64,000 nt of DNA from Patescibacteria group bacterium (GCA_050953885.1 JBMNNJ010000001.1:207437-271436); one strand, 5' to 3'. Positions 26,291 through 55,171 are shown, counted from the first letter of the stretch. A program made the numbers and translations. Notes: a model not told the origin generated them from the sequence alone.

Positions 26291-26341
26291 TTAATTCGTT
26301 TTCATTCGTTTTAATTCGTGTGTCCAAAAAGGAGGTGAAAA

Positions 26342-28063: not shown

Positions 28064-28480
28064 ATATGTCTTCTCTATAAACTATTTAAACTTAAGGCAA
28101 ATGTTAAAACTTTTTAAAACTTAAAGTTGTTTTTTAGTTTTGATCCGCCAGCTGGCGGACAGAATCGAATAACTAAAAGTTAAAAGTCAAAATTACAAGT
28201 TAAAATTCAAAAGTAGAACAAAAAACTTTTAACTTCTGCCCGCCAGCTGGCGGGCAGAATCATTCTCGTAGCTGTCATTCCTGAATTAAATTCAGGACAG
28301 GCTCTGACGAAAGTCAGGATCTAACTGATTCTGAATCAAGTTCAGAATGACGCTAATCGTGACCGTCATTCTGACGAATTCGCCAGCTGACGGATTGAGA
28401 TTTGAGTTTTAAGTTTTTTCAAGATGAGACAGATGGCATTAAATGCCAATAAATAAATTACCACCAAGAATAAATTAATT
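28064..28480. repeat. composite repeat array (CAAAA/AAAGT tract, three CCGCCAGCTGGCGG-type palindromes, hairpin cluster)
   Basis: Read directly. Confidence 0.8.
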
Positions 28481-28491
28481 AAACTAATATC

Positions 28492-31062: not shown

Positions 31063-31142
31063 TTAATTAATAAAACAGGGATTATTTTTCCCCAAAAAGT
31101 CGTTTTTTGACTTAAAATAATTAAAGGTGGAAATAAATAAAA

Positions 31143-32567
31143 ATGGAAAATAGAGCTGAATTGTCGCCAGCTTTTCCTTATCCTCAAAGAGAAGTAGAAA
31201 TCAGCAAGGAAAAACTTGGGGAAATTTTAGAAACAAAACCAATAAAACTAACAGAGAAAGAGAGGGAAAGAGTCGGCGAATTTGAAGGCGAACTTTTTGA
31301 ACAATATCTCCCTCTTGAAAACATTGCCCCGGAAACACACGCTGTTTATCCCCAATATTTTCTCAGCGACACGGGGTGGCGTTTGTTTCAAATGGTTTAC
31401 CAAGACTCAAGCCTTAGCCAAAGAATAGAAAAGATCTTAGAAGAGCAGGGAATAAAATTTGACAAAGAAAGTGTTGCCGGCCGACAGACAGAAAAAACAT
31501 TTTGGAACACGGTTTTTAAGGATCTTTTGACAGTCGCCGAGGATGAAGAAAAATTTACCCAATATCAAGAAAAAGGATGGCCGTTTAAAGAGAGGGAAAA
31601 GGCTCTTGGTGAAAAAGCATCGTTAACATTGCCAGGGGAAATCACCGCTTTGGCAAAACCCACTACCCTTGAGGAAGCCGAGAAGCTTTTTTATCAAACT
31701 TCCAACCAAAGCTTGAAAGACATTCAAAAACAGCTTCAGAAAGGGGTAGAAACAGCCTCCAGCGATTGGGCCAGAGATCGTTTCCTGGAAGAATTTCAGA
31801 AAGCTGGCGGCAACGTCGGCCAGATTACCAATCCTGTCATAATAAGCAGAGTCGTTAACCCGGAAAGCCTGCTGGAAAAAATTAAAGGCTACCGAAGCCT
31901 CAAGAAAGAGTGGAAAGAACTAAAACGAAAATTGTTAGAAAACGACGACCCTCTTAGCCAAGCCAAAGTGGCTGTTTTAAACATTTATTTAAGACGACTT
32001 AATGTCTCTATTGCTGAACAATATTCTACCGGGAGGGTAATCGCTTCTTCTCCTCAGCCTAGCCCGGAGGAAAAAAAGGCTTATCAGGCCATTAAAGGGA
32101 CCAAGGCCGAACTACCCGAGGACCGCTTTAGCGCTTCAAAAGTTTCAAGAACAATGGAGCACATTGACCATTTCCTTGTTGGCGCCAGCCAGGTAATCAA
32201 CCCCAACACCGGACTTTACAAAACAATTTCTCCAAAAATTGACGAAATTATTGCTAAAGCTGGGCAAGAAAAGGATTCAAAAAACCAAAAATTTGAAAAA
32301 TACAACGCTGTCAGGGTAAACGCCGAACAGGCTAAGTTTTTAGGAGAGATTATTCTTCGGACTTACCACCTCGATCAGGAGGGATGGACTATTTATATCG
32401 ATCCCCACCAAAAATCTTTAGCCTGTGCTTATAAAGAAGCTTTTGAAGGAGAAGAAAAGAAAATAAAACAAATTAAAATTCCCCCAGAGTATAATCGCGG
32501 CCTGATAGATACTCTCAAAGCTTTAGCCCACGAAATCGAGGGCCACGCCCTAAGGTGGCAAAATTAA
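31143..32567 (+). CDS. DUF1704/MATCAP-like HExxxH metallopeptidase, N-terminal portion; ends at an in-frame TAA directly after HEIEGHA
   Basis: Terminal HEIEGHALRWQN matches the HEXXXHA motif of the QEGLA/DUF1704 family. The same frame continues after a single TAA. Confidence 0.5.
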   Translation: MENRAELSPAFPYPQREVEISKEKLGEILETKPIKLTEKERERVGEFEGELFEQYLPLENIAPETHAVYPQYFLSDTGWRLFQMVYQDSSLSQRIEKILEEQGIKFDKESVAGRQTEKTFWNTVFKDLLTVAEDEEKFTQYQEKGWPFKEREKALGEKASLTLPGEITALAKPTTLEEAEKLFYQTSNQSLKDIQKQLQKGVETASSDWARDRFLEEFQKAGGNVGQITNPVIISRVVNPESLLEKIKGYRSLKKEWKELKRKLLENDDPLSQAKVAVLNIYLRRLNVSIAEQYSTGRVIASSPQPSPEEKKAYQAIKGTKAELPEDRFSASKVSRTMEHIDHFLVGASQVINPNTGLYKTISPKIDEIIAKAGQEKDSKNQKFEKYNAVRVNAEQAKFLGEIILRTYHLDQEGWTIYIDPHQKSLACAYKEAFEGEEKKIKQIKIPPEYNRGLIDTLKALAHEIEGHALRWQN

Positions 32568-32576
32568 GAAACCTTC

Positions 32577-33254
32577 TTGGCAAAAGAGGAGGAGGGGATG
32601 CGCTTATTTAGCGAGTTAACCACGGGCCGCGAAAATCTTCTCTCTGAAGCAGCAGCAATTTATATAGAAAAGAAAACTTTAAGGGAAACCGTAGGAAAAG
32701 AAAGGCTTCCTAGCCGTTATTATTATCTAATTTTGAAAAGAAAAAGAGACGGCGGCAGCTTTAAGGAATGTTTTCAAACTGCTATGGAAGCATTCGCTGA
32801 AAAAAGGGGGCAAACTCTCACAGAAATCATAGGTGATAACAAGAAGTTTGAAGAAGCGTGGCGGTACGCTTATCCTAGAACATTAAGAATTTTCCGCGAG
32901 GAAACACCCCTTGACGATACCAGTGGCTACTTGCCGTCTTCCAAAACTCTCCATTACACCGAGCAGGAAATTATTGGCGAAGAACTGGAAAAAGCCGGTC
33001 TTGCCGATTTATTATTCGTAGGAGGAACTGATTTTTATTCTCTTGCTGATTTAAGAAAATTAGGTTTGCTAGACTTTGATAAAATTAACAAGCCAAAATA
33101 CGCCGCGGTGGCTCTTTTTGAAAAAATAAAAGAACAAATTGACCAAGGAAAAACTTTAGAAGAAATCATCAGCGCTTATGAAAATCAGCCTCCGTCTTTT
33201 GAAACACAGAAAAAGTTATCAAAGCAAACGCCAAAACGGCCAGTTCTTAATTAA
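32577..33254 (+). CDS. C-terminal continuation of the DUF1704-like protein; no ATG, only a TTG start, same frame as 31143-32567
   Basis: Begins (L/M)AKEEEGMRLF, which supplies the acidic/QEGLA-like motif expected about 15 aa after HExxxH. Frame identical to the upstream ORF. Confidence 0.45.
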   Translation: MAKEEEGMRLFSELTTGRENLLSEAAAIYIEKKTLRETVGKERLPSRYYYLILKRKRDGGSFKECFQTAMEAFAEKRGQTLTEIIGDNKKFEEAWRYAYPRTLRIFREETPLDDTSGYLPSSKTLHYTEQEIIGEELEKAGLADLLFVGGTDFYSLADLRKLGLLDFDKINKPKYAAVALFEKIKEQIDQGKTLEEIISAYENQPPSFETQKKLSKQTPKRPVLN

Positions 33255-33267
33255 AGCTTAGGCAATA

Positions 33268-33945
33268 TTGAAAAAAATCCTCGTTACCCTTACCACCACC
33301 AATTCTTCCTGGCAGGAAAAAATTAAAGAAATTAAGAATCTAGAACTTAAAGAAATTGCTTTATTTTTAACCTGCCTTAACCGGCAAGAAAGAGAAGAAT
33401 GCTACCGCGCCCTTGCCAAAACCGGTTTGGAAAAAATTCCCTTTGTCCATCTTCGTTCCGACATGAGCGCCGAGGAGGTAGGATTCTTAATCAAAAATTA
33501 CCAAACCGAAGTTTTTAATATTCACAGCGAAAGGGAATTTCCATTAAAAGATGATTTATCTTTTTGGGCTAACCGGATTTATCTGGAAAACACCGATCTT
33601 CTTCTTGGCGAGGAGGAATTAAAAAAATGGGCGGGAATTTGTTTGGACCTCTCCCATTTGGAAGATGACCGCTACCTTAAGCAAAAGCGGTATAAAAAAT
33701 ATTTAAGGTTAATTAAAAAATATCCGGTGGGCGTTAACCATATTAGCGCCGTGAGGAAAAAAGTTTTCCGTCATCCTGAATTTGGTTTGGTTAAAAGCGC
33801 TCATTTTCTTAAAAGCCTTAACGAGCTTGACTATCTTAAAAATTACCCGGCTAATTTTTTTGCTCCCCTAATTGCCATTGAACTGGAAAACTCTTTGGAA
33901 GAACAATTGAAGATTAAAACTTACTTGGAAAAGCTTCTTTTTTAG
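33268..33945 (+). CDS. hypothetical protein
   Basis: Intact 225-aa ORF, no confident motif. Confidence 0.4.
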   Translation: MKKILVTLTTTNSSWQEKIKEIKNLELKEIALFLTCLNRQEREECYRALAKTGLEKIPFVHLRSDMSAEEVGFLIKNYQTEVFNIHSEREFPLKDDLSFWANRIYLENTDLLLGEEELKKWAGICLDLSHLEDDRYLKQKRYKKYLRLIKKYPVGVNHISAVRKKVFRHPEFGLVKSAHFLKSLNELDYLKNYPANFFAPLIAIELENSLEEQLKIKTYLEKLLF

Positions 33946-34433
33946 AAAGATTTTTCTTCTCTTTTTGCCCACAAAAGCAGGGAAGAAGTTAACAAAAATA
34001 AACCGCCCGATATGAAAAGAATTTGGGTGGGAGCAAAATTACCCACCACCGGCGTGGTGGCCTCTGCCGGCGCGCCCACTCCGGCCGGCATTTCCCCGCC
34101 AACAGTTAAGGTAAAAGCAACCGTGCTTCCCTGCGAGGCAAAAGAAACCTGATGATCGCCATTTGCCAGCGGCGCGGGAGTATAAGACCATTGGCCCGCC
34201 TCATCCACACTCACCGTTTCCGTGGCGCCGTCAATGGTGGCTTCCACCTGACTGCCGGCCACTCCTTCGCCGGTAAAAGTAATGTTGCCGTTGGAATACC
34301 ACCAGTGATCATAAAGCTTGCCCGCCGTTGACAACCCGCCAATATTCTTCAGCTGAAAACCGGCAGCAAAAAGAGGCGCGCCGCTTAAAAGAAAGAAAAA
34401 ACCCGCCGCCAAAAGAACTATCGTTTTCTTCAT
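33942..34433 (-). CDS. small secreted/anchored Gly/Ala/Thr-rich protein with a C-terminal hydrophobic segment and basic tail
   Basis: Signal peptide MKKTIVLLAAGFFFLLSGAPLFAA. C-terminus GGLFLLTSSLLLWAKREEKSF resembles a sorting or anchor signal. Confidence 0.5.
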   Translation of the reverse strand: MKKTIVLLAAGFFFLLSGAPLFAAGFQLKNIGGLSTAGKLYDHWWYSNGNITFTGEGVAGSQVEATIDGATETVSVDEAGQWSYTPAPLANGDHQVSFASQGSTVAFTLTVGGEMPAGVGAPAEATTPVVGNFAPTQILFISGGLFLLTSSLLLWAKREEKSF

Positions 34434-34471
34434 CTTAAGAAGAGAGTAATCCTTTTTTTTCTCGTTGTCAA

Positions 34472-34535
34472 GGCGGCCTTTGGCGCAAAAATCCCGAGGT
34501 TTGAAGCTATTTAACTCCGGGGGTTTGAAGCTACT
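34472..34535. repeat. family C unit CCTTTGGCGCAAAAATCCCGAGGTTTGAAGCTATTTAACTCCGGGGGTTTGAAGCTA
   Basis: Further copies at 36246-36275, 36717-36749, 36866-36897, 36947-37006, 37718-37812, 38495-38545, 39345-39455, 42690-42740, 43262-43310, 50825-50890, 58200-58250, 59051-59096, 59888-59990, in both orientations. Confidence 0.8.
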
Positions 34536-34972
34536 TAGTTTTTTGTGCTATAATAACCTTATCGTTAATCAACCCTCCGTCGACAAACTAATTAAAATCT
34601 TTTTAAAAAGAGGTGGACGGATCGACAAATACTATCTTCAAGATAATAATCAGAGCAAGCACACCCTGCTCTACCTTAAAGGTTGGTTTGCCGGCAAAAA
34701 CATTCGCGAGGCCCTAAATAAAGCCCTTTTTTCGCCCAAAAACAAATAGACTTTGGGGGGAAACTGGCTATTAGCCGACCTTCGTGTTATAATACTTTTT
34801 GATTGATGCAGATTGTGCCTTGGTACATCTGCTTATACTGATTTAGTTTTTTAAAAGATAAAGATACCTCAAGCTTTCTACTCAAGTATCTTCACATTAA
34901 AAACGACTTCATTTCTTTAAGCAGATCTACCTGGGCGCAATTCCCCCCTCAACTTAAAACCGAAAATAACTC

Positions 34973-36166
34973 ATGGCCTACTTCAAACAAAGAAACTATT
35001 ATCGCCGGCCAACTTCTGGCTCCGGCAATTGGGCCAACAAAAGACATTTTCGAAATTCAGGAAAAAAACTCGACGAAAGCCTGTTTATTAAAAAAGCCAA
35101 AGGCGGCCCGGTTGAAAAACCTTTTGCCGAAGGAGCCAAGTTTGCCGACTACGCCCTGGTTGACCAATTAAAAACCAACATTGCCCAACACGGCTATCAA
35201 ACCCCCACCCAAATTCAAGACCAGGTTATCCCTCAGGTTTTGGCCGGTAAAGACATTATTGGCGTGGCTAACACCGGCACCGGTAAAACGGCCGCTTTTT
35301 TAACCGGCCTCATTAATAAAGCCTATTTAGACAGAAATCAAAGAGTATTAATCATCGTGCCCACCCGGGAATTAGCCCTGCAAATTGGCCAAGAATTTAA
35401 CCATCTTGCCAAAGGAATGGGTCTTAATATCGCTACCATTATCGGCGGCGTCAATATCGGCTGGCAAATAAGTCTTTTAAGATCAAATCCCAATTTTATC
35501 GTTGGCACCCCGGGTCGGTTAAAAGATTTAATTGGCCGCAAAAAGATCGAGCCGGCCTCTTTTGGCAATATTGTCTTGGACGAGGTTGATCGCATGGTCG
35601 ATATGGGCTTTATTAAAGATATTAAGTACTTAGTTTCGCTTTTACCCCAAAACCGCCAAGGGCTGTTTTTTTCGGCGACAGTTGATGATAAAACAGAGCA
35701 AATCTTGCAAAACTTTGCTCACCAACCGATTCGGGTCTCGGTAAAACACCAAGACACTCTTGATAATATTGATCAGGATATTATAAAAATTACCAATCGG
35801 GGCACTAAAATCGACGTCTTAAGAAAATTACTGGCCCAACCGGGCTTTGATAAGGTGCTGATTTTTGGCCGAACCAAATGGGGCATGGAAAGGCTGGCCC
35901 GCTCCCTGGTGGAATACGGCATTAAGGCCACCGCTATTCATGGCAATAAATCTCAAAACCAAAGACAAAAAGCCCTGGCGCAATTTAAAAACAACCAGCT
36001 TCAGGTCTTAACGGCCACTGATGTGGCTTCTCGAGGCCTAGATATTGATAACGTTACCCAGGTAATTAATTATGATCCTCCGGCTACTTATGATGATTAT
36101 GTTCACCGCATCGGCCGAACCGGCCGGATGGGTAAAAAGGGCTTAGCGCTGACCTTTATCGAATAA
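34973..36166 (+). CDS. DEAD-box ATP-dependent RNA helicase
   Basis: Q motif, ANTGTGKT (motif I), PTRELA, DEVD (motif II variant), SAT-like, HRIGRTGR (motif VI). Confidence 0.9.
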   Translation: MAYFKQRNYYRRPTSGSGNWANKRHFRNSGKKLDESLFIKKAKGGPVEKPFAEGAKFADYALVDQLKTNIAQHGYQTPTQIQDQVIPQVLAGKDIIGVANTGTGKTAAFLTGLINKAYLDRNQRVLIIVPTRELALQIGQEFNHLAKGMGLNIATIIGGVNIGWQISLLRSNPNFIVGTPGRLKDLIGRKKIEPASFGNIVLDEVDRMVDMGFIKDIKYLVSLLPQNRQGLFFSATVDDKTEQILQNFAHQPIRVSVKHQDTLDNIDQDIIKITNRGTKIDVLRKLLAQPGFDKVLIFGRTKWGMERLARSLVEYGIKATAIHGNKSQNQRQKALAQFKNNQLQVLTATDVASRGLDIDNVTQVINYDPPATYDDYVHRIGRTGRMGKKGLALTFIE

Positions 36167-36280
36167 CCCCAATCCCCGCTCCTCTTGAGGAAAAAAAAGC
36201 TCCTAAGGGTAAAATAAAAAGTGCTATTTAGAAACCGCGTTTATAAGCTAACCAACGCCGGGGGGGGTTAAATAGCTTTT

Positions 36281-36622
36281 TTATTTATTTAAATACATCT
36301 TGAATTCAATGCCGAAATTTTCAAATCCGTTCTTCTCATACATCTTATGGACACTTTCTCTTTCATAACGGCTGGTAGCGACAAGTTTGTAGCACCCGAG
36401 ATTTTTAGCTTCGGTGATAACCATATTTAATAATTTAGTGCCGATGCCCTGTCCTCTAAGTTGTTCATCAACAAATAAATCCTCTAACAAGCCAAATGGT
36501 TCTTTCTTTAGGTCATTTTTCATTACATACAAAAAGGCTCGGGCAACTTCTTTTCCGTCTTTTTCTATAAAGAATTTTACTCCAAATGATTTAACTGGTT
36601 TTTTGTTTATTTTTATGTCCAT
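36281..36622 (-). CDS. GNAT-family N-acetyltransferase
   Basis: Acetyl-CoA binding motif A RGQGIGTKLL. Confidence 0.8.
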   Translation of the reverse strand: MDIKINKKPVKSFGVKFFIEKDGKEVARAFLYVMKNDLKKEPFGLLEDLFVDEQLRGQGIGTKLLNMVITEAKNLGCYKLVATSRYERESVHKMYEKNGFENFGIEFKMYLNK

Positions 36623-37049
36623 TTTTAGTTTTCCCGGAAGAATTTAATTGCTCAAAGGTTTACAATATCTTACCTAAAAAATTGAAATAAGGCAATTTTT
36701 AACCTGTCATTGTGAAGCTAATCAACGCCGGGGGTTAAATAGCTTCATCTGAAGAACGCAGATCCTGACTTTCGTCAGGATGACAGCTACGGGGATGATT
36801 CCCGCCAGGCGGATTCGTCAGAGCTTGTCCTGAATTTAATTCAGGAATGACAGCTACGATTAGTGTGCCTATTTAAATCCGGGGGTTTGAAGCTATCAAG
36901 GAAAGCGCTTTTACTGCGAATAATTAATAATAGTTAATATTATCTGCCTTTGGCGCAAAAATCCCGAGGTTCGAAGCTATTTAACTCCGGGGGTTTGAAG
37001 CTATTTATTCAAATTATTAGGAGCATAACCCCTATGTTAAACTAAATTT

Positions 37050-37718
37050 ATGAAAAAGTTCTTTCTGCCTTTTCTTGGCCTCATCGCTCTTTTTCTAGGT
37101 CTTAATAACCTTAATCTTCGCCAGGAAATTCAAAAATTAACCGCCCAAAACAAAGTTATCGAAGTTATTGACGGCGATTCTCTAACCTTAGCCTCCAAAC
37201 AAAGAGTTCGCCTGGCCAATCTTGATGCTCCCGAATTGGAGTTTTGCGGCGGCATTGAAGCGAAGAATAAACTTGAATCCCTCACTCTAAATAAGACTGT
37301 CCGCTTGGAAATAATCGGCCACGACAACCTGAACCGCTCGATTTCTTTAGTTTATGTTGACAATACTCTGGTTAACGAAATCGTTCTCAAAGAGGGCTGG
37401 GCTCGCTATGACGGCTCGCCTTCGCCGGAAAAAGAAAAATTAAAACAAGCTTATGATTATGCCTTTGAAAACCGGCTAGGGATTTTCAGCCCCTTGTGTT
37501 TTTCCGAAGAGCCACCCAGCCCCAAATGCCTAATTAAAGGCAATGTCGACCGCCATTATGGCCAAAAAACCTATCATTTCCCCGGTTGTAGTGGTTATCC
37601 CCAAGTAATGGTAGAAAAAGACTTAGGCGAAGATTGGTTTTGTTCAGAAAAAGAAGCTGAAAAAGCTGGCTTTACCAAATCCAAAAATTGCTATGGTAAA
37701 ATATACGTTCCTATTTAA
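37050..37718 (+). CDS. secreted thermonuclease (staphylococcal-nuclease/SNase-like) with a Cys-containing C-terminal module
   Basis: Signal peptide. SNase active-site region RLANLDAPE, OB-fold. C-terminal KGNV...YHFPGC...WFCSEKEAEKAGF module. Confidence 0.8.
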   Translation: MKKFFLPFLGLIALFLGLNNLNLRQEIQKLTAQNKVIEVIDGDSLTLASKQRVRLANLDAPELEFCGGIEAKNKLESLTLNKTVRLEIIGHDNLNRSISLVYVDNTLVNEIVLKEGWARYDGSPSPEKEKLKQAYDYAFENRLGIFSPLCFSEEPPSPKCLIKGNVDRHYGQKTYHFPGCSGYPQVMVEKDLGEDWFCSEKEAEKAGFTKSKNCYGKIYVPI

Positions 37719-37951
37719 CCCCCGGAGTTAAATAGCTTCAAACCTCGGGAAAAATATATAATTTTGAACTTACCTCTCCGGCGCGAGCGCCAAAACTACT
37801 GGGCAGGTAGACAAAAATTTAAAACTCTGTTAAAATAGAGAAAACCGAAGAAAAACCAAATATTTGTTTGAAAATTAAAGCTGATGGTAGCATAAAAAGG
37901 CTAAGAGGGATTTCTGGCTTGCTAAAAAATTTTTAATCATCCTTATTACTC

Positions 37952-38440
37952 ATGTTGATTATTCATCCCCAGCCCAATCAGTGGAAAATGTATAGAAAGA
38001 TTCGATTAGCGGCCTTAAAAGAAGATCCGCAAGCCTTTGGCCGCTTTTTTAAAGAAGAAAAAACATATTCCAAAGAAAAATGGTTAGAACGAGTAAATAA
38101 TGACTACAGTCTACTGGCTCTTGAAAACAACAAACCGATAGGAATAATCAGCGCCTATATTACCGAAGAAAAAAACAACAAAGTTGCCCATGTCGTTAGT
38201 GTTTTTGTTCTTAAAGAAGCTCGTGGTAGGGGTGTTGGGAAAAAGTTGCTTAATGCCGTCTTAGAGAAAATAAAAAAAGACCCGACCATTAAAAAAGTTG
38301 TTCTATCTGTAAACAAAGAGCAAATTCCCGCTGTCAAGCTATACCAAAAATTTGGTTTTGAAATTATTGGCCAAAAGCCCGAGCGATTGGGTGATGGCAA
38401 AAAACACATAGAATACGAGATGGAACTATCTTTGAAGTAA
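37952..38440 (+). CDS. GNAT-family N-acetyltransferase
   Basis: Motif A RGRGVGKKLL, GNAT fold length. Confidence 0.8.
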   Translation: MLIIHPQPNQWKMYRKIRLAALKEDPQAFGRFFKEEKTYSKEKWLERVNNDYSLLALENNKPIGIISAYITEEKNNKVAHVVSVFVLKEARGRGVGKKLLNAVLEKIKKDPTIKKVVLSVNKEQIPAVKLYQKFGFEIIGQKPERLGDGKKHIEYEMELSLK

Positions 38441-38556
38441 AGGCCCCAAAAGTAACCTAGGCCAAGAAACCACCTAGCCATCTAGAGGGAAACCCTGTTA
38501 TTTCGTAGCTATTTAACCCCCGGAGTTGATTAGCTTTTATAATGGAAGCCTGAAAC

Positions 38557-39345
38557 ATGTCTTCGAAGAGGCGCTTGAAGAAAAGCTGTAAAGTTTCTAC
38601 TACAATACAAATGGGCATTACTGGCAACAATAAAAAAACAAAAACCGAAATCTGTCACAAACATTTCTTGCAAATTCAAGAAAAGTTAGCTACTAACACG
38701 TGGGCAAAAGAAAAACCTAAAGGGAAAAAAGAAATAATAAAACTCTTAAGAATTTGCAATCAGGCATTTGGGAAAATTCCTGGATATATTAAAGTTCTTA
38801 AATCAATATCAAAAAACTTAAATGAAAACGATTCAATTAAATGGCTAAATTATTTTTCTCAAATTCGATGTGCATATTATCTACAAACACAAGGGGTTAG
38901 TATTACCGCCTTTGAGAAAAAAGTAAATGGAAAATTAATTGATTTAGAAATAAATGAGGCAACGCTTTGTGAAGTTAAATCTTTCGAACCTCAACTTAAA
39001 AAAACAGAAAACGCAATAGAATTAGAGGAAGATGTCTTTAAAAACTTTCTTGAAAATAAAATTAAAAAGGCTCTAGATGAACAAAAAGCTGACTTAGTTA
39101 TAATTGATGATATTTTTTCTTATGAATCTAAAATCTACAGATTTTTAAATTATTTCTTATCGTTCATTAATGATCCTGGTACTGAGCGTTATGAAATGAT
39201 CCAAAAAAAATTTGGTAAATATCTACCTAAAATTCTAATTCTAAGTTTTACAAGCTCAATGGCCATTAATCCCATTATCAGAGACCCAATGGGTAGCGAG
39301 TGGGTTAAAATATTGTCATTAAACAAAGCCAAAAATCATGAATAA
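38557..39345 (+). CDS. AT-rich orphan protein; weak PD-(D/E)xK-like arrangement (IDLEINE...CEVKS)
   Basis: Intact 262-aa ORF, compositionally more AT-rich than its neighbours, bracketed by family C repeats. Confidence 0.4.
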   Translation: MSSKRRLKKSCKVSTTIQMGITGNNKKTKTEICHKHFLQIQEKLATNTWAKEKPKGKKEIIKLLRICNQAFGKIPGYIKVLKSISKNLNENDSIKWLNYFSQIRCAYYLQTQGVSITAFEKKVNGKLIDLEINEATLCEVKSFEPQLKKTENAIELEEDVFKNFLENKIKKALDEQKADLVIIDDIFSYESKIYRFLNYFLSFINDPGTERYEMIQKKFGKYLPKILILSFTSSMAINPIIRDPMGSEWVKILSLNKAKNHE

Positions 39346-39571
39346 AAAAAGCTATTCGACCCCCGGAATTGATTAGCTTCAAAACTCGGGAAAAATATGT
39401 AATTTTGAACGTGCCTCTCCGGCACGGGCGCCAAAACCACCTGGCCAGGTAGCTGAAAAACCTAGCCTTAATCACCCCAAGGGTTGATTAAGGCACTCCT
39501 ATCGAGTATACTTGTACAATACTTCAAGGCACTACCGATAATTTACGCCAATACGCATAAATTTAAAATTC

Positions 39572-39958
39572 ATGATAAAATCTAAAATAAAAGAATTAAG
39601 TTATGAAAAAATGAAAGAAATCGAGAATTTAACAAAAGAGATTGTTTCTTTTCGAGACGAAAGAGAATGGAAACAATTTCATAACCCGAAAGACATGTCT
39701 TTGTCTCTAGTTCTGGAAGCAGGAGAAGTGATGGAGCACTTCCAGTGGAAAAACGGAGAAGAGATGGAAAAATATGTTACCGAGCATAAAGATGAAATTG
39801 GCGAAGAGCTTGCTGACGTTTTATATTGGATTTTGCTTATAAGCCACGACCTTAATATAAACATTCTCGAAGCTTTAGAAAAAAAAATAAAGAAAAATAA
39901 AGAAAAATATCCTGTAGAAAAAGCAAAGGGAAGACATACAAAATATACAGATCTTTAG
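39572..39958 (+). CDS. MazG-like nucleoside-triphosphate pyrophosphohydrolase (all-alpha NTP-PPase)
   Basis: EAGEVMEHFQW (E-x-x-E) and EELADVLYWILLIS (E-E-x-x-D) metal-binding motifs, 128 aa. Confidence 0.75.
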   Translation: MIKSKIKELSYEKMKEIENLTKEIVSFRDEREWKQFHNPKDMSLSLVLEAGEVMEHFQWKNGEEMEKYVTEHKDEIGEELADVLYWILLISHDLNINILEALEKKIKKNKEKYPVEKAKGRHTKYTDL

Positions 39959-39981
39959 CTTTTTGATGTTTTCGATAGAAA

Positions 39982-40689
39982 ATGCTCTCCAAAAGAAAAA
40001 ATAAGCTCGTAGCAAAAAAGAAATTGCAAGAGGGACATAGAGAAAGATTGCGGCAAAGATTTTTACAAGGAGGACTCGATTCCTTCCTCGATTACGAAGT
40101 TGTTGAATTACTTTTGACGCTAGGAACCCCCCGCAGGGATTGCAAGTCTATTGCTAAAGAAATAATTAAAAAATTTGGAAATTTATGTAACGTTCTTGAT
40201 GCTTCTCCGGAAGATCTGCAAGAAATATATGGCGTAGGCCCTAACAACATATTTGGTTTAAAATTATTTCAGGCAATATCAGAGCGATATACCGGCGAAA
40301 AAATTCAAAAAAAAGAAATTCTCAATAACCCTAAGGCAGTATTTGATTACCTTAAAAATCTTATTGGAAAAGAGAAAAAAGAAAGCTTTGTGGTTATATC
40401 ATTAAACTCAAAAAACCAATTAGTCAAAATTAATAAAATATCGTTAGGAACTGTTGATGCAAACATTGTGCACCCTAGAGAAGTCTTCCAAGCAGCCATT
40501 AAAAATTTAGCAACGCAAATAATTATAGCCCATAATCATCCCTCGGGTAGCCTAGAGCCGTCTCCGGAAGATGTTGCTTTAACTAGGCAATTGTTAGAAG
40601 CTTCTTCAATCTTAAGCATTCCGCTCATTGATCATATAATTGTTACCAACAAGGAATACTTAAGCATGAAGGAACATAATTTCATATAG
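39982..40689 (+). CDS. radC: RadC-like JAB/MPN-domain protein with an N-terminal HhH
   Basis: N-terminal HhH (EIYGVGP) and JAMM motif IIIAHNHPSGSLEPSPEDVALT. Starts 24 bp after the mazG-like stop. Confidence 0.85.
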   Translation: MLSKRKNKLVAKKKLQEGHRERLRQRFLQGGLDSFLDYEVVELLLTLGTPRRDCKSIAKEIIKKFGNLCNVLDASPEDLQEIYGVGPNNIFGLKLFQAISERYTGEKIQKKEILNNPKAVFDYLKNLIGKEKKESFVVISLNSKNQLVKINKISLGTVDANIVHPREVFQAAIKNLATQIIIAHNHPSGSLEPSPEDVALTRQLLEASSILSIPLIDHIIVTNKEYLSMKEHNFI

Positions 40690-40695
40690 GCTGAA

Positions 40696-42564
40696 ATGAT
40701 TCTTTACGAAGGAACAATTGAACAATTTAATCAAGATGTTATCCAAAACTGCATCGCTGACAGGGCGGCCGAAAAATATCAAGCCCACTACAATAGAAGA
40801 CCCAACAATTCAGAGTACCGTTCATGGGCTTACTCTCTGGCTATACTTAACAATTCTTTCCGTTATGCAAATCTTAAAGACAATTATGTTCTTCTTGAGT
40901 ATGAGCTTCCATACTCCTCACAAAGAATAGATGTTATACTTTTCGGAGAAAATTATCAGGACCAAAAAAATGTTGTCGTGATCGAATTAAAACAATGGTC
41001 CAATGATAATGTGTCACCCGCAGAATCAAAAGGAAATGTAATTGTTAATTACGGAAGATTTAAAAAAGAAGAACCTCATCCCTCTTTGAAAGTTCAGGGA
41101 TACCATTTTTATCTCAAGGATTTTATAAAGCTTTTTACTGAAAAGAATGCTCCCAACCTTAACTCTTTGGCATATGCTCATAATTATTCCCGAGAAAGAG
41201 GGGGCGTGTTGTTTTCTGATGAGTTTCAATCTGCTTTAGCGGAATTTCCTCTATTTGCAAAAGAAGATTCGATTAAGTTAGCAAACTACTTAAAAGATCG
41301 GCTAAGTAAAGGGAGAGGACAAATTCTTTACGAACGATTTGCTAGAAGCAAAATTGGCCCCTCTAAAAAGCTTCTCGCACATACTTCAGAAATGATTAAT
41401 AAGCAACAAGTTTTTAATTTAATTGACGACCAAATCGCTGCTTATAATGCAATAATGCACAAAGCAAAAAAGCTCTCGGGAACAGAAGAAAAGTCAGTGA
41501 TTTTAGTTAATGGTGGCCCAGGTACCGGCAAATCGGTTATCGCTTTGGAAGTTATGGGAGAGCTTTTAAGACAGGGTAAAAAGGTGGTTCATGCTACTGG
41601 GTCATCAGCTTTTACTAATACATTAAGGAGTCTTGTTGGTTTAAGGGCTAAAAATCTTTTCAAATTTTTTAACAGCTTCACAAGAGCGAACCCTAATTGT
41701 TTTGATGTTCTAATTTGTGATGAAGCTCATCGGATAAGGGAGTCAAGTGCGGATAGATACACCCCAAAAGAGCTAAGGACCAATGACCCCCAAATAGATG
41801 AATTGCTACGAGTTGCCAACCTCAGTGTTTTTTTTATAGATGAATATCAAATTGTAAGACCAAATGAAGTGGGTAGCATCGAAATGATTAAGAACGCAGC
41901 TAAAAGATTTAATATCAAAACCAAAAATATTATCGAATTTGAGCTGAAAACACAGTTTCGTTGTTCCGGCTCCGATGCTTACCTTCAATGGCTTGATAAT
42001 GTCTTAGGGATCAGAGAAACAGGGATTACCGAATTTGATACTAAAATGGAGTTTAAAATATTTGAAAATCCTCAAAAAATGATGAACGAAATTAGGGAAA
42101 GGAATAAGGAAAAGCCCAACTCTGCTCGTATAGTTGCTGGTTTTTGCTGGCCATGGAGTAACCCTCGGCCAGACGGATCGCTAGTGAATGATGTAAAAAT
42201 TGGAGATTTCGAAATGCCTTGGGAAAAAAAGAATCAATTTTGGAAGTGGGCAACAGATAAATCAGGCATGGAGCAAGTTGGCACTGTCTATACTGCTCAA
42301 GGGATGGAGTTTGATTATATCGCGGTAATTTTTGGTAACGACCTTGTTTATAACCCCCAAAAAAATGAATGGGAAGCAATACCTGAAAATTCTTATGACA
42401 CACAGGTTAAGAGAAACAACCCTAATCTAGAAAATCACTTAAAGCATGTTTACCGTGTTTTAATGTCTCGTGCCCATATGGGAGTTTATGTTTATTTTAT
42501 GGATAAAAAAACAGAAGATTATTTTAGAAGACATTTGCCCAAGCTCCCTTCTGCTTCTAAGTAA
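40696..42564 (+). CDS. DUF2075-type protein: N-terminal PD-(D/E)xK-like nuclease module fused to an SF1 P-loop helicase (Nhi-like)
   Basis: RIDVILFGE...VVVIELKQW (D...E-x-K), Walker A NGGPGTGKSV, Walker B DEAH box VLICDEAHRI, C-terminal VYTAQGMEFDYIAV UvrD-C-like motif. Starts 7 bp after radC. Confidence 0.75.
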   Translation: MILYEGTIEQFNQDVIQNCIADRAAEKYQAHYNRRPNNSEYRSWAYSLAILNNSFRYANLKDNYVLLEYELPYSSQRIDVILFGENYQDQKNVVVIELKQWSNDNVSPAESKGNVIVNYGRFKKEEPHPSLKVQGYHFYLKDFIKLFTEKNAPNLNSLAYAHNYSRERGGVLFSDEFQSALAEFPLFAKEDSIKLANYLKDRLSKGRGQILYERFARSKIGPSKKLLAHTSEMINKQQVFNLIDDQIAAYNAIMHKAKKLSGTEEKSVILVNGGPGTGKSVIALEVMGELLRQGKKVVHATGSSAFTNTLRSLVGLRAKNLFKFFNSFTRANPNCFDVLICDEAHRIRESSADRYTPKELRTNDPQIDELLRVANLSVFFIDEYQIVRPNEVGSIEMIKNAAKRFNIKTKNIIEFELKTQFRCSGSDAYLQWLDNVLGIRETGITEFDTKMEFKIFENPQKMMNEIRERNKEKPNSARIVAGFCWPWSNPRPDGSLVNDVKIGDFEMPWEKKNQFWKWATDKSGMEQVGTVYTAQGMEFDYIAVIFGNDLVYNPQKNEWEAIPENSYDTQVKRNNPNLENHLKHVYRVLMSRAHMGVYVYFMDKKTEDYFRRHLPKLPSASK

Positions 42565-42755
42565 CCTATTAAAACGAAGGCGTAAGGGCCCTAACGACTA
42601 TAATTAATAAAAAATTTTATTAGAAAAATAAAAGCTTGCAGGCATAAAAAACGGAGTAGCCAATTTTTTGCTAGGCTCTATGAGCTCAACCAAGAATTCG
42701 AAGCTATTTAACCCCCGGAGTTGATTAGCTTGATAACCTTAACTCAAATAAAACT

Positions 42756-43199
42756 TTAATTTTCTTCAGGCTTAAATTGTCCATCTTCGTATACATATTT
42801 CACTTCAGTCAGGTCGTTTGAGTTAACTTCTTCTGCATAAAGCAAAGTAAAACCATTCCCTACTTCTACCTCCTCTGGGGATTGCTTAACTCCAATCCTC
42901 ATCTTTTCATCACTTTCAAAAACAACCCTGCCTTCATCAATAACCCACAGCTTACCTGCTCCTTGAGTCATAGCTACAGGAATTATTACTAAACTTTCTG
43001 ACAAATCATCTCCATCCACATCCATACTAAAGTATTCTGGACACCTTCCTAAAAAACATTCCGGAAGTTCTTGACTTACAATTTTTTCTTTTTGAGCAGG
43101 AACGTTAATTTTTGTACTTCTTGAAAAATATCCAATCGCAAAACCTAAAAGGATAAAAATTAAATAGGCTAAAAACTTGCCTACTGTAATCTTAGACAT
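42756..43199 (-). CDS. small membrane-anchored hypothetical protein convergent on the island operon
   Basis: N-terminal TM helix, acidic C-terminal domain. Confidence 0.45.
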   Translation of the reverse strand: MSKITVGKFLAYLIFILLGFAIGYFSRSTKINVPAQKEKIVSQELPECFLGRCPEYFSMDVDGDDLSESLVIIPVAMTQGAGKLWVIDEGRVVFESDEKMRIGVKQSPEEVEVGNGFTLLYAEEVNSNDLTEVKYVYEDGQFKPEEN

Positions 43200-43313
43200 A
43201 AGACTATTCTATCAAAAATTGATAAAACTAGGCAAACAAGGTTAAAAAAAGAAAGAAACTTAACTATAAATTTGAAGCTATTTAACCCCCGGAGTTGATT
43301 AGCTTTTGAATTT

Positions 43314-44585
43314 TGCGTGAAATGCTTGAAATGCATGAGACGTTTGAAACGTAAAAACATTAAACGGTTCAGGCGATTCAAGCCTCAAGCTTTGAAGCAT
43401 CAAGTCTTAAGGCAGATCCTGATTTTCATCAGGATGACAACTACCTTGATTCAGAATCAGTTAGCTAAAAGTTAAAATTCAAAATTTAAAAGTCAAAAGT
43501 ACAAGTCAAAATTCAAAAGTAGAGCAAAAAACTTTTAACTTTTAACTTGTCCGCCGGCAGGCGGATTCGTTAAAATGACGGCCACGATTAGCGTCATTCT
43601 GAACTTGATTCAGAATCGTTATTATTGTCAGAAAACACAGATCCTGACTTTCGTCAGAGCCTGTCCTGAATTTAATTCAGGAATGACAGTTACCTTGATT
43701 CAGAGTCGTTATTAATGTCAGAAAACGCAGATCCTGACTTTCGTCAGGATGACGGTTGCGATTAGCGTCATTCTGAACTTGATTCAGAATCTGTGTTATT
43801 GTCAAAAAACGCAGATCCTGACTTTCGTCAGGATGACGGTTACAGGTTCTGACTTTCGTCAGAATGACGGTTACGGGACTACAGGAATAACCCTGCCCAC
43901 CAGCCGACGGACAAGTTAAAACTCAAAACTCAAATGTCAAATCTCAAAACTACATGTTAAAACTTAAAACTACATGGTAAATGTTAAAACTTTTTAAAGC
44001 TTAATTCGTCAGAATGATGACAGCCGTGCCGTCATTCCGGACTTGATCCGGAATCGGTGTTAATGCCTAAAGAACGCAGATCCTGACTTTCGTCAGGATG
44101 ACGGTTATCTGAAGAACGCAGATCCTGACTTTCGTCAGGATGACGGCCACGATTAGCGTCATTCCGGACTTGATCCGGAATCGGTGTTATTGTCAGAAAA
44201 CGGTAGATCCTGACTTTCGTCAGGATGACGGCTACGGGGATGATTCCCGCCAAGCGGATTCGTCAGGATGACGACAGTCGTGCCGTCATTCCGGACTTGA
44301 TCCGGAATCGGTGTTAATATCTGAAGAACGCAGATCCTGACTTTCGTCAGGATGACAGCTATGGGGATGATTCCCGCCAGGCGGATTCGTCAGAATGACG
44401 GCCACGATTAGCGTCATTCTGAACTTGATTCAGAATCAGTTAGATCCTGACTTTCGTCAGGATGACGCTTTCGTCAGAGCCTGTCCTGAATTTAATTCAG
44501 GAATGACGGCCACGGCAGGATAATTTTATTCGCTCATTCGTGTTGATTCGTTTCCCATTCGCGTTGCTTCGTGTCTTTGGTCCAA
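43314..44585. repeat. about 1.25-kb BIME/REP-like composite array: one family D 100-bp unit, CAAAA/AAAGT low-complexity tract, CCGCCAGCTGGCGG-type palindromes, more than 20 short hairpins in repeating units of about 95 bp, ending in a CGAAT-periodic unit
   Basis: Three hairpin types (ATCCTGAC-TTTC-GTCAGGAT, ATTCTGAA-CTTGA-TTCAGAAT, TCCTGAATT-TAA-TTCAGGA) each followed by ATGACGG. They recur with conserved linkers such as GCGATTAGCGTC and GTTATTGTCAGAAAACGCA. No unique spacers. Confidence 0.85.
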
Positions 44586-44644
44586 AAATCTTGTGCTAAA
44601 ATGAAGAAAGATAAAAGAATCGCTTTTGGAAATTAAAATTCGCC

Positions 44645-45400
44645 ATGAATCACTACCGCCAACGGGAAACCAATCTTTACCAGCCCGGCCAGGAAAGACC
44701 TTTTTGGTTAAGCCGCTCCAAGATTGATCTTTTTTTGGAATGCCCCCGCTGTTTTTACCTTGACCGCCGCTTGGGTTTGAGCCGTCCCGGCATGCCTTCT
44801 TTTTCCCTAAACTCCGCCGTTGACCAGCTTTTAAAAAATGAATTTGACCTCCTGCGCCAAGAAGGCAAACCCCACCGGCTGATGGAAAAATACCGCATTG
44901 AGGCCATTCCCCTAAATCATCCCGATCTTCCCCTCTGGCGCGACGATGTCCACCGCTGGGAAGGGGCCCATGTTCACCACCAGCCCACCAATTTTGAAAT
45001 AAGCGGCATTGTTGACGACATCTGGGTAGACCGGAAAAATAATTTCTACATTGTGGACTACAAATCCACCAGCACCACAGCGGAGATTTCCCTTGAAGAT
45101 GAATACAAGCAAGGTTATAAAAAACAAATCGAGGTTTACCAGTGGATTTTTAGAAAAATGGGCTTTAGCGTTGCCAACACCGCCTATTTTGTCTACGCCA
45201 ACGCCAGCAAAAACCGCCCCCGCTTTGACGGCCGTTTGGAATTTGAGGTGCAAATTATCACCTACGAGGGCAATGACGCGTGGGTAGAGCCCACCCTTAA
45301 GGAGATTAAAAAATGCCTTGATTCCCCCAAAGTGCCCGCCGCCGACCCCGATTGCGAATATTGCCGTTATCGCCAATTAATCAGCCAGAAACTTAAATGA
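44645..45400 (+). CDS. Cas4/RecB-like PD-(D/E)xK nuclease with Fe-S cluster cysteines (stand-alone)
   Basis: IVDDIWVD...FYIVDYKST (D...D-x-K) core. N-terminal CPRCFYL and C-terminal C-x13-C-x2-C cysteines. Confidence 0.65.
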   Translation: MNHYRQRETNLYQPGQERPFWLSRSKIDLFLECPRCFYLDRRLGLSRPGMPSFSLNSAVDQLLKNEFDLLRQEGKPHRLMEKYRIEAIPLNHPDLPLWRDDVHRWEGAHVHHQPTNFEISGIVDDIWVDRKNNFYIVDYKSTSTTAEISLEDEYKQGYKKQIEVYQWIFRKMGFSVANTAYFVYANASKNRPRFDGRLEFEVQIITYEGNDAWVEPTLKEIKKCLDSPKVPAADPDCEYCRYRQLISQKLK

Positions 45401-45717
45401 TTTCTCTTGAAGACTTTCAAAAGTTGGACATCAGGGTAGGGGAGGTAAAAGAAGCCGCGGCGGTGGCCGGCAGTAAAAATCTTTTCCTCTTAAAAGTTAG
45501 CCTGGGTAAAGAAGAACGCCAAATTGTTTCCGGTTTGGCCGGCTTTTACCAGCCCGAAGAACTTTTAGGCAAACAGGTTATTCTTCTTGCCAATCTTGAA
45601 CCAAGAGTAATTTTTGGCCTTGAAAGCCAGGGAATGCTTTTGGCCGTTGACAGTGGCGCGGAAGTGGCCCTGCTCACCCCTGATCGCAAAGTAACCCCGG
45701 GCAGTCCGGTAAAGTAA
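45397..45717 (+). CDS. tRNA-binding (Trbp111/CsaA/Myf-domain) protein; start overlaps the upstream stop as ATGA
   Basis: LDIRVGEV...LKVSLGKEERQIVSGLAGFY...GMLLAV OB-fold tRNA-binding signature. Confidence 0.8.
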   Translation: MISLEDFQKLDIRVGEVKEAAAVAGSKNLFLLKVSLGKEERQIVSGLAGFYQPEELLGKQVILLANLEPRVIFGLESQGMLLAVDSGAEVALLTPDRKVTPGSPVK

Positions 45718-45734
45718 AAAAATTACCTTGAGGG

Positions 45735-46310
45735 TGATTTATGCGAATTGAGACGAACGAAAAACGAATTAACACGAAAAATAAACTCAAATCTCAAATC
45801 TCAAAACGCAAAACTACATGGTAAATGTTAAAACTTTTTAAAGCTTAATTCGCCAGCGGGCGGATAAAATCATGCGTGAAATGCTTGAAATGCAGGAGAC
45901 GTTTGAAACGTAAAAACATTAAACGGCTCAGACAATCAAGCCTCAAGCGTTTCAAGCATCAAGCTTTAAGACAGATCCTGACTTTCGTCAGGATGACGGT
46001 TACGGGGATGATTCCCGCCAGGTGGATTCGTCAGAATGATGACAGCCGTGCCGTCATTCCGGACTTGATCCAGAATCAGTGTTATTGTCAGAAAACGCAG
46101 ATCCTGACTTTCGTCAGGATGACAGCTACCTTGATTCAGAATCGTTATTAATACCTAAAGAACGCAGATTCTGACTTTCGTCAGAATGACGGTTACGGAA
46201 AGCGTCAGGATGACGACAGCCGTGCCGTCATTCCGGACTTGATCCGGAATCTGTGTTATTATCAGAAAACGCAGATCCTGACTTTCGTCAGGATGACAGC
46301 TACAGGTTTG
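45735..46310. repeat. composite repeat array (CGAAT-periodic unit, CAAAA tract, family D 100-bp unit, hairpin cluster)
   Basis: Built from the same modules as 43314-44585. The ORF-track 'proteins' here (45876-46151, 46155-46367) are repeat translations. Confidence 0.8.
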
Positions 46311-46337
46311 ATTTTTGCATTTTGAATTTATTCTTAT

Positions 46338-46619
46338 ATGGTTCAGGCTAAAATCTCCGTTTCTCATCTGGCCAAATTAGCCAACCTCCATCTTTCTTCC
46401 CCAGAAGAAAAATTAATCGGCCCCCAAATTGAGGAAGTGGTGGGCTCTTTTTCGGTTTTGGACCGCGTTTCGGCTTTGGAAAAACTTCCCCCCACTTTTC
46501 AGGTGGGCCAAAACGAGAATATTCTCCGGCCCGACGAGGTTCAACCCTCCCTGGCGCGCCCAAAAATTCTTGGCAAAAATACTTTTTTTACCACCAAAGC
46601 CGTTTTAACCAAAAAATGA
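46338..46619 (+). CDS. gatC: Asp/Glu-tRNA amidotransferase subunit C
   Basis: ISVSHLAKLANLHLSSPEEKLIGPQIEEVV matches the GatC core. Immediately upstream of gatA. Confidence 0.8.
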   Translation: MVQAKISVSHLAKLANLHLSSPEEKLIGPQIEEVVGSFSVLDRVSALEKLPPTFQVGQNENILRPDEVQPSLARPKILGKNTFFTTKAVLTKK

Positions 46620-48040: not shown

Positions 48041-48043
48041 AAA

Positions 48044-50639: not shown

Positions 50640-51180
50640 ACGCGAATGAGCGAATAACTGGCGCAAAAATAATTCAAAAGGCAAAAGTCAAAATTCAAAA
50701 TTGCAAGTCAAAAGTTAAAAGTTTTTTGCTCTACTTTTGAACTTTAACTTGTACTTTTGACTTTTGAATTTTGACTTTTAACTTTTAGTTATTCGATTCT
50801 CTCCGCTACGCTGGCAGACAGAATCATATTTTTCCCGGGGTTTGAAGCTAATCAACTCCGGGGGTTAAATAGCTTCAAACCTTGGGATTTTTGAATTTAA
50901 TTCAGGAATGACGGTTGCGATTAGCGTCATTCTGAACTTGATTCAGAATCGTTATTGTTATTAATGTCTAAAGACACAGATCCTGACTTTCGTCAGGATG
51001 ACGGACGGGGCGGTTACAGGTTCTGACTTTCGTCAGGTGACGGCCACGATCAGCGTCATTCTGAACTTGATTCAGAATCGTTATTGTTATTAATGTCAGA
51101 AAACGCAGATCCTGACTTTCGTCAGGATGACAGTTACGGAACTACAGGAATAATCCTGTCCGCCAGTTGGCGGATGGCGT
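50620..51180. repeat. composite repeat array (CGAAT unit overlapping the gatB 3' end, 130-bp AAAGT/CAAAA inverted-repeat tract, family C unit, hairpin cluster)
   Basis: Same modules as the other arrays. 50670-50790 is itself a near-palindrome. Confidence 0.8.
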
Positions 51181-51267
51181 TTTTTATTACGCATTGCCCA
51201 TTACCCATTACAAGTTACGCCTTATTCCCCCAACACCAGAAGATAATGCTATACTAAGAAAGAGGGT

Positions 51268-55099: not shown

Positions 55100-55171
55100 G
55101 CAGCAAAGGACATACTTAATGCCATCCTGGACTTGATTCAGGATCTTAAAAGATGCTGAATTAAATTCAGC

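Follow-up and report, generated by a model that had tools for sequence, protein, structure and literature searches.

Short repeats between the genes of a variable island

The DNA analysed here is a stretch of 64,000 nucleotides (nt) from a Patescibacteria group bacterium (GCA_050953885.1 JBMNNJ010000001.1:207437-271436), which we call the window and in which positions are counted from the first letter. It carries an island of accessory genes that encode, among others, a DEAD-box helicase, two GNAT proteins, an SNase-like nuclease and a MazG-like/RadC/DUF2075 helicase trio, the last forming a three-gene unit; between the genes lie copies of a short imperfect palindrome, family C (Table 1). An earlier note on this DNA had likened the island to an integron cassette array, with each gene bracketed by the same 45-60 bp repeat. 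Our analysis indicates that family C very probably consists of repetitive extragenic palindromic (REP) elements, partly in the form of full palindromes resembling REPINs (REP doublets forming hairpins), that their cognate enzyme is probably a domesticated Y1/HUH single-strand DNA transposase of the REP-associated tyrosine transposase (RAYT) type, and that the repeats probably play a role at the junctions of gene modules.

Searches with 17-nt cores and mapping of exact strings placed 14 family C copies in the window, ten of them within 34476-43305 and four beyond the island, with none in the first 34 kb, where the mur/fts cluster, clpB and other core genes reside. The 12-mer GGTTTGAAGCTA, allowing one mismatch, occurs 13 times, against 0.33 expected from shuffled sequences. 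All 14 copies are intergenic, C6 contributing the stop codon of the SNase gene, and they occupy eight of the ten intergenic gaps of the island versus 4 of 41 elsewhere (Fisher p = 3e-5). Copies do stand beside core genes (gatB/dnaE, the tRNA-Glu region, and the surroundings of the RAYT gene between ileS and mraZ described below), yet they are far rarer there than in the island, and the observations agree only in part with the equal frequency on which the earlier note would have abandoned its reading. When the strand with the G-rich loop is taken as reference, C1-C5 run forward and C6-C10 in reverse, the switch falling at the SNase gene; C11, C12, C13 and C14 beyond the island are all on the (+) strand.

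Several details of the earlier note needed adjustment. Its repeat size is only approximate: the cores measure 29-58 nt, and copies reach about 102 nt when the extension is included. The 41-mer that it reported matches C1 and C12 exactly and C5 with a single mismatch. The placements that it named are correct, except that the interval between the GNAT gene at 36281 and the SNase gene holds three copies instead of two. The 60-bp extension that it saw on two copies is real (61-62 nt) and found solely at C6 and C8, and the window indeed encodes no integrase, nor any transposase, by Pfam, translations and profile search. The copies do delimit units, but these contain one to three genes on either strand and not single genes only.

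Table 1. Family C copies and genes of the island, with positions in the window (z, score of the single-stranded DNA fold against shuffled sequences; dG, folding free energy in kcal/mol).
Feature	Position	Strand	Description
C1	34476-34533	+	'double direct'; 5' flank GCCTTTGGCGC, then two GGTTTGAAGCTA units 24 nt apart; between Big_13 gene (-) and DEAD helicase gene (+); z 0.14, no better than shuffles
C2	36245-36278	+	hairpin AAGCTAACCAAC-GCCGGGGGGG-GTTAAATAGCTT; between convergent DEAD helicase and GNAT1 genes; z -1.5
C3	36714-36746	+	hairpin GAAGCTAATCAAC-GCCGGGG-GTTAAATAGCTTC; dG -7.2, z -4.0; repeats of a different family downstream (36755-36865)
C4	36867-36895	+	degenerate copy GCCTATTTAAATCCGGGGGTTTGAAGCTA
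C5	36946-37003	+	'double direct', 97% identical to C1; 47 nt upstream of SNase start; z 0.16
C6	37709-37810	-	core 37709-37749 including SNase stop codon; 61-nt extension 37750-37810; left breakpoint of island swap
C7	38505-38536	-	short hairpin; between GNAT2 and orphan gene; z -1.6
C8	39350-39452	-	core 39350-39390; 62-nt extension 39391-39452; directly after orphan gene
C9	42700-42731	-	short hairpin; between convergent DUF2075 gene and ORF 42756; z -2.3
C10	43274-43305	-	short hairpin; upstream of ORF 42756 (-); z -3.4; a 1.3-kb cluster of other families comes after it
C11	50834-50886	+	full 53-nt palindrome, same form as RAYT-flanking copies; between core genes gatB and dnaE; dG -17, z -5.9
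C14	58208-58246	+	degenerate copy; between G6PD-like gene and tRNA-Glu
C12	59055-59096	+	'double direct'; on one side of ORF 59112-59828 (-)
C13	59920-59986	+	tandem of three 24-nt units; flanks ORF 59112-59828 on the side opposite to C12
DEAD-box helicase	34973-36166	+	Pfam
GNAT1	36281-36622	-	Pfam
SNase (SNase-like nuclease)	37050-37718	+	Pfam
Variable segment	37817-44545	.	GNAT2 to other-family repeat cluster
GNAT2	37952-38440		
Orphan gene	38557-39345		
MazG-like	39572-39958		
RadC	39982-40689		
DUF2075/SLFN-type helicase	40696-42564		Pfam; PADLOC matches to defence families PDC-S41, AbiO, Nhi
Small ORF	42756-43199	-	
Other-family repeat cluster	43308-44600		

Anatomy and folding of family C

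The consensus element joins a conserved 5' tail (TCCYNRGGTTN-GAAG) to an imperfect hairpin (CTATTTAAC-NCCGGGG-GTTRRA..). Its short-hairpin form, for example AGCTATTTAAC-CCCCGGA-GTTGATTAGCT, is found in C2, C3, C7, C9 and C10; in the 53-nt palindrome (C11) the short hairpin is joined by an outer arm, CCCGAGGTTTGA / TCAAACCTCGGG, which C6 and C8 possess on one side only, together with the extension. In the 'direct' form (C1, C5, C12 and C13) the unit GGTTTGAAGCTA is repeated with a period of 24 nt. The heptamers ATTTAAC / GTTAAAT make up the innermost arms of the 30-nt hairpin, around a 7-nt loop. When folded as single-stranded DNA, the palindromic forms of the window are more stable than their shuffles (z -1.5 to -5.9). 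Individual examples of compensatory changes in the arms occur among copies from lineages of the Candidate Phyla Radiation (CPR; AACACCGGGTGTT, AACCCCTGGGGTT), and in a CPR-wide alignment the register of the right arms differs between subfamilies. At 36.7-37.0 kb and beside 43.3-44.6 kb, family C copies are grouped with repeats of other families in the manner of bacterial interspersed mosaic elements (BIMEs).

The extensions of C6 and C8 are 89% identical across 44-47 nt, and in relatives BLAST found the extension invariably joined to a core. Its terminal motif, CCAAAACCACCTGGCCAGGTAG, recurs without a core at window 38462-38485 in the 3' flank of GNAT2 and at 909-935 of contig L031, at the GNAT2/radC2 junction, and may be a separate junction element.

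Other roles were considered and rejected. Promoter-like matches in the region are not above those in shuffles, and good ones overlap family C at just two places, C1 and the end of the C6 extension, the best being the second TTGAAG of C1 followed after 18 nt by TATAAT; an intrinsic-terminator signature is absent from every copy. A derivation from a tRNA fragment or attachment (att) site was dismissed because the T-loop-like GGTTCGAA lacks a closing stem, and a DNA-uptake sequence was ruled out by copy number and length. Rfam returned only tRNAs at the gathering threshold and chance-level matches in the island region, while the viral sequence collection searched gave a single chance match.

A probable RAYT gene bracketed by family C palindromes

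No RAYT gene was detected by tblastn or profile search in the window or in contigs of its close relatives. Walking left from the murC gene of the window led to L097, part of the 61.3-kb contig Ga0591961_000687, whose positions 9055-21458 are 100% identical to window 1-12404, so that about 73 kb of the genome is covered. At 3964-4638 of L097, 4.4 kb left of the window start and between ileS and mraZ, a gene encodes a Y1_Tnp (PF01797) protein of 224 amino acids (aa) which scores 299 bits against the family profile and has both the HUH (NHFHFLL) and the Tyr (HLSRYIHLNP) motif. Near-identical 53-nt family C palindromes, CCCGAGGTTGCAAGCTAATCAACTCCGGGGGTTGATTAGGCAGGAACCTCGGG, lie on both sides of it; the DNA hairpins predicted for them have dG -19 to -20 kcal/mol (z -6 to -8), and the extra 9 kb left of the window contains no family C copy besides these two. 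A gene flanked by its own palindromes is the defining arrangement of RAYT/REP systems (PMC2817692, PMC6006769) and is called a 'REPtron'.

The same arrangement was found repeatedly. In L011, L025 and L042 a 236-aa open reading frame (ORF) has the motif at a distance of 15 nt on either side, as reverse complement upstream and in forward orientation downstream; the ORF matches Pfam Y1_Tnp with 36.4 bits against a cut-off of 23, and such inverted copies also surround the gene in L076, L078, L080-85, L086 and L088. The RAYT protein has 2085 homologues of about 224 aa, the named sources being Daviesbacteria, Levybacteria, Gottesmanbacteria and Patescibacteria, and the HUH and Tyr motifs are invariant in 27 homologues. 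Of seven further RAYT loci examined in other CPR lineages, six are bracketed by a family C-type motif. At L087, the most divergent member (47% identity), another palindrome takes up these positions, which indicates that protein and REP co-vary. In two different CPR genomes (L086 3001-3669 and L088 3001-3681) the RAYT gene is located between gyrB and holB, a synteny that suggests vertical inheritance rather than hopping in the manner of an insertion sequence (IS). L078 has a second Y1_Tnp gene (429-1106, minus strand) at 9 kb from the first and 31% identical to it, with a palindrome of its own (GGTCGCACCT...AGGTGCGACC); thus CPR genomes can hold more than one RAYT/REP pair.

A phmmer search of the RAYT against the sequences of the PDB gave no useful match, and the weakness of such sequence searches made a structure model necessary. 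The AlphaFold model (mean confidence score, pLDDT, 88.6) was compared with the PDB by Foldseek, which returned as best match 4ER8, the E. coli REP-associated tyrosine transposase in complex with a REP hairpin (E 4e-6), followed by the TnpA proteins of IS608 and ISDra2.

A 20-nt degenerate pattern of the motif matched 14 places in species-representative genomes as well as 59 metagenome contigs, and, a few chance matches inside genes set aside, these share a common 40-nt context, TCCYNRGGTTNGAAGCTATTTAACNCCGGGGGTTRRA. The metagenome-assembled genomes (MAGs) that bear it are labelled Woesebacteria, Levybacteria, Microgenomates, Paceibacterota, Saccharibacteria and 'Patescibacteria group', and include STE_141 (Paceibacterota), with 88-96% nucleotide identity to the source of the window. 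Where contigs of distant lineages share one flank, they diverge exactly at the edges of the 40-nt motif, with either the left or the right side constant.

Strains differ at the repeats

The earlier note had proposed a comparison of strains for presence, absence and reordering of units at the repeat boundaries, and such variation was seen both in related strains and in more distant relatives. Ga0591961_000687 (examined as L089/L091) is 99.9% identical to window 27050-37817 and unrelated to it right after C6 and its extension; the first differences of L089 and L090 from the window begin 10 nt into the extension. Beyond this point L089/L091 have a different radC, another family C copy and hsdM. 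The same C6 junction is present in L090, a contig of a second, independent metagenome. On the other side, Ga0591961_000307 (L093) runs through hsdM-hsdS-hsdR-ygjP-ORF and then equals window 44546-55400 at 99.8%. In a backbone that is 99.8-100% identical, 6.7 kb of the window (37817-44545) is therefore exchanged for radC2-hsdM-hsdS-hsdR-ygjP, which includes a type I restriction system. The units at 34973-37718, bounded by forward copies, are retained and collinear in the 99.9% identical strain (L089/L090).

Comparison with less close relatives (L003, L029, L031, L036 and L039) extends this picture. Five different genes follow the SNase|C6 junction in five assemblies, among them a 356-aa membrane protein with copies on both sides (L036), a ResIII/HSDR_N restriction subunit (L039), and a NucS-like protein succeeded by a methylase and an OLD/GajA-type nuclease (L003). 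Behind GNAT2 we found the orphan gene in the window, radC2 in L031 and a type III methylase in L029. Family C copies stand between transcription units, and none lies inside the hsdMSR operon. The left arms of the copies track their left flanks, and the right arms and extension track the right-hand module. No target-site duplications were found at copies that differ between strains (L036, L040 and L089). Outside the island, synteny with L008, L018 and L034 breaks at C13.

The Logan contig L001 starts exactly at C7 and ends at C9, and L092 also ends in a copy; we take these ends to be assembly breaks and not excision products. L039 (1-345) and L061 (600-1000, reverse complement) contain a duplicated piece of about 45 nt, taking in the 5' end of the Big_13 gene (window 34416-34472), next to two 'double' family C copies, and a run of GTAACCC/GTAATGC heptads separates these two copies.

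A probable REP family with its RAYT

The features by which RAYT/REP systems are recognised were taken from PMC2817692, PMC6006769 and PMC8266576. The system described here shows a Y1 gene with its own palindromes on each side, a protein with HUH and Tyr motifs, and dispersed, clustered intergenic copies. By analogy with E. coli TnpA(REP) in vitro, the RAYT would bind the folded single-stranded element and cut and rejoin DNA beside it. Such cutting and rejoining may give rise to further intergenic copies, with a preference for the dispensable defence island, and the resulting repeats of 30-100 nt could then serve as portable homology or as weak points for the deletion, insertion and replacement of modules. 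The most likely route would be that REP copies recombine with each other, perhaps with DNA acquired from relatives as substrate, since the repeats alone suffice for this; such recombination would also explain why another repeat family serves as the second junction. The cassette-like look of the array arises because REPs accumulate at every transcription-unit boundary of a locus with fast turnover. A more active part for the enzyme is also conceivable, in which the RAYT cuts single-stranded DNA at two REP hairpins of the same orientation and rejoins it, so that circles of a gene plus one REP are excised and inserted and the REP-bounded units themselves are mobile. We regard this as unlikely, though worth stating; if true, the REPtron would be an HUH-based analogue of the integron that shuffles defence genes in genome-reduced CPR bacteria.

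A number of observations weigh against assigning family C to a REP/RAYT system that acts at module junctions. REPs are usually species-specific (PMC6006769), whereas the family C motif is conserved between classes whose RAYTs share only about 50-58% identity. The tetranucleotide at the foot of the hairpin is GAAG in place of the canonical GT[AG]G, and this GAAG belongs to a conserved tail of 16 nt. The 'double/triple direct' copies C1, C5, C12 and C13 fold no better than shuffles (z about 0). The sole NCBIfam match of the 236-aa ORF, REP_Tyr_transpos, scores 46.6 and thus falls under the curated cut-off of 80, and profile matches to 4ER8 and 2XM3 at the sequence level are weak (E 0.07-0.26). 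Proteobacterial enzymes are the only RAYTs for which binding, cleavage and rejoining of single-stranded REPs are known (PMC8266576). On its right side the island swap breaks, at about 44546, in a cluster of other repeat families, so that family C is not the sole junction. Some junctions are found on single metagenome contigs, which could in principle be chimeric at repeats, although the main junction is present in two metagenomes (L089 and L090). Finally, the data are compatible with homology-driven as well as with enzyme-driven exchange.

Other explanations for the array

The reading suggested by the earlier note would make family C a set of attC-type sites and the units mobile cassettes, served by an IntI-like tyrosine recombinase encoded elsewhere. 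Gene units bracketed by an imperfect palindrome fit this idea, as do the inner arms ATTTAAC / GTTAAAT, which conform to RYYYAAC / GTTRRRY, and the presence or absence of units between strains exactly at the sites, although the latter shows integron-like behaviour and not membership. The heptamers, however, surround a 7-nt loop and do not form the outer ends of a 55-141-nt site with two pairs of binding sites, and the short copies span only 30 nt. Site orientation is mixed (C1-C5 forward, C6-C10 reverse), the units have genes on both strands, neither the ORFs of the window nor the adjoining 9 kb on the left yielded an integrase or recombinase gene, and our literature search returned no such integron link for these bacteria. 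Since the motif moreover brackets a Y1 transposase gene in seven loci, we consider an integron extremely improbable. A related possibility is that an 11-7-11 palindromic core is bound by a host recombinase of the XerC/D type, as in the pdif modules of Acinetobacter plasmids. The core AGCTATTTAAC-7 nt-GTTRRWTAGCT does resemble the core site of a tyrosine recombinase, and each arm co-varies with the flank on its own side, left with left and right with right, as if exchange took place close to the centre. The arms are nevertheless unlike the dif consensus when judged by eye, the sites that flank a module mostly share one orientation instead of alternating, no xer gene turned up in the covered part of the genome, where no dedicated xer search was made, and the association with the RAYT gene is direct and repeated; Xer/dif-like modules therefore seem very improbable to us.

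It could also be argued that the REPs are bystanders which merely fill intergenic DNA, perhaps as transcript-stabilising RNA hairpins at 3' ends, while turnover proceeds through flanking genes or other repeats. C2 and C6-C9 do lie directly at gene 3' ends, any breakpoint between modules must fall in the intergenic DNA where REPs live, and the swap has its right break in another repeat family. Yet the 99.9% identity that extends up to the C6 core is lost within 10 nt after it, which argues against crossovers in flanking genes; the same SNase|C6 junction abuts five different right-hand neighbours; junctions with one constant flank fall exactly at the 40-nt motif in distant lineages too; and none of the copies looks like an intrinsic terminator. 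Because identity collapses just past the core and many modules abut the same copy, we judge a bystander role rather improbable. Movement of family C by a classical transposase, as a miniature inverted-repeat transposable element of a DDE transposon, appears to us next to negligible. The full 53-nt form does have terminal inverted repeats, and in MAG STE_141 an ORF resembling the C-terminal half of a DDE transposase of the IS30 type (L008 1842-2342, minus strand) lies 12 nt from a copy. This fragment, however, has no Pfam match at 1e-3, the strain-variable copies lack target-site duplications, and the RAYT association accounts for the ends better. An IS beside a REP is an expected product of IS elements that target REPs, and the IS30-like ORF of L008 may be such an insertion.

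Likeness to known systems

As a probable REP family with its RAYT, family C resembles the REP/BIME and TnpA(REP)/RAYT (yafM) system of E. coli, the 'REPtron' (4ER8), in which a Y1/HUH gene is likewise bracketed by cognate palindromes (PMC2817692, PMC8266576). The two also share many intergenic copies, a 5' tail preceding a bulged imperfect hairpin, and mosaic clusters with other palindromes. The E. coli RAYT has 165 aa versus 224 aa here, about 60 residues fewer, and the two are 17% identical in the structural alignment; the foot of the E. coli REP is GTAG versus GAAG in family C, and the family C motif is kept across classes. With the REPIN-RAYT systems of Pseudomonas (Bertels & Rainey) family C shares doublets or full palindromes (C11 and the two copies next to the RAYT gene), which accompany singlets, and a fixed chromosomal place of the RAYT gene (gyrB-RAYT-holB in two other CPR genomes). 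It differs from them in being concentrated in one variable island, where it delimits modules, and in having 'direct' forms, tandem 24-nt units that form no hairpin.

Integron cassette arrays are alike in outcome, with small units, a recurring imperfect palindrome, strain differences and many defence-type functions, but no IntI, attI or Pc was found here, and site architecture, orientation and enzyme class (HUH versus tyrosine recombinase) differ. The pdif modules (XerC/D) of Acinetobacter plasmids are likewise discrete modules flanked by short palindromic sites in varied contexts, whereas family C does not look dif-like by eye, mostly does not alternate around modules, is chromosomal and has a RAYT partner. 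IS200/IS605 elements (IS608, ISDra2) share with it the transposase superfamily, subterminal hairpins recognised on single-stranded DNA and the lack of target duplications; unlike them, the RAYT gene appears fixed between ileS and mraZ and is not multi-copy, and the hairpins are dispersed singly instead of forming the two ends of an element.

Other repeats and insertions in the window

Family C is one among many: the window also contains several other short hairpin repeat families in mosaic clusters. BIME-like mosaics of these stand by core genes at 3356-3431, 9600-9950, 17544-17623, 28160-28400, 43308-44600, 45740-46320, 50600-51150 and 60870-62170, with example units GATYCTGACTTTCGTCAGRATGAC, GTCATTCYGRACTTGATYCRGAATC and TGTCCTGAATTTAATTCAGGAATGAC. 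AT-rich repeats with a period of about 7 nt (CAAAAYT-like), intergenic and on both strands, often lie beside hairpin clusters; they were located at 9873-9965, 12824-12937, 26183-26293, 28161-28234, 43467-43540, 43918-43992, 50669-50800, 55549-55690, 61132-61249 and 63689-63864. A family of short units of the CGAAT / ACGCGAAT type occurs at 761-812, 9605-9656, 12769-12820, 45736-45787 and 50604-50655.

A 27-nt direct repeat, CCAAAACGGCCAGTTCTTAATTAAAGC, lies at 31042-31068 and 33231-33257; it is the 3' end of clpB, present a second time where ORF 32577-33254 ends. The pair brackets a 2.16-kb insert of two genes (31143-32567 and 32577-33254, neither with Pfam matches) which is missing from the 96% identical relative L067, and which looks like an insertion with a duplicated attachment sequence, unrelated to family C. 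Four ORFs of the mechanical list (34465-34749, 43181-43381, 44032-44253 and 45876-46151) are translations through repeats, such as '..QKSRGLKLFNSGGLKL..' across C1, and are probably not genes.

Significance

Patescibacteria (CPR) have tiny genomes and are thought to be poor in mobile elements. The RAYT/REP system reported here is widespread among them, and no description of it was found in the literature searched; Patescibacteria are absent from the published RAYT/REP surveys examined (PMC6006769 among them). Family C is, we conclude, very probably a new REP/RAYT family of Patescibacteria that has been amplified within a variable defence island and marks points of module exchange. The conservation of its palindrome across classes is unusual, and its copies mark the junctions where a 99.8-100% identical backbone bears wholly different defence modules. 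The presence of such repeats at these islands explains why metagenome assemblies break there. The motif can be used as a marker for variable loci and RAYT genes in CPR bins, and family C together with its RAYT provides a concrete handle on genome plasticity in Patescibacteria.

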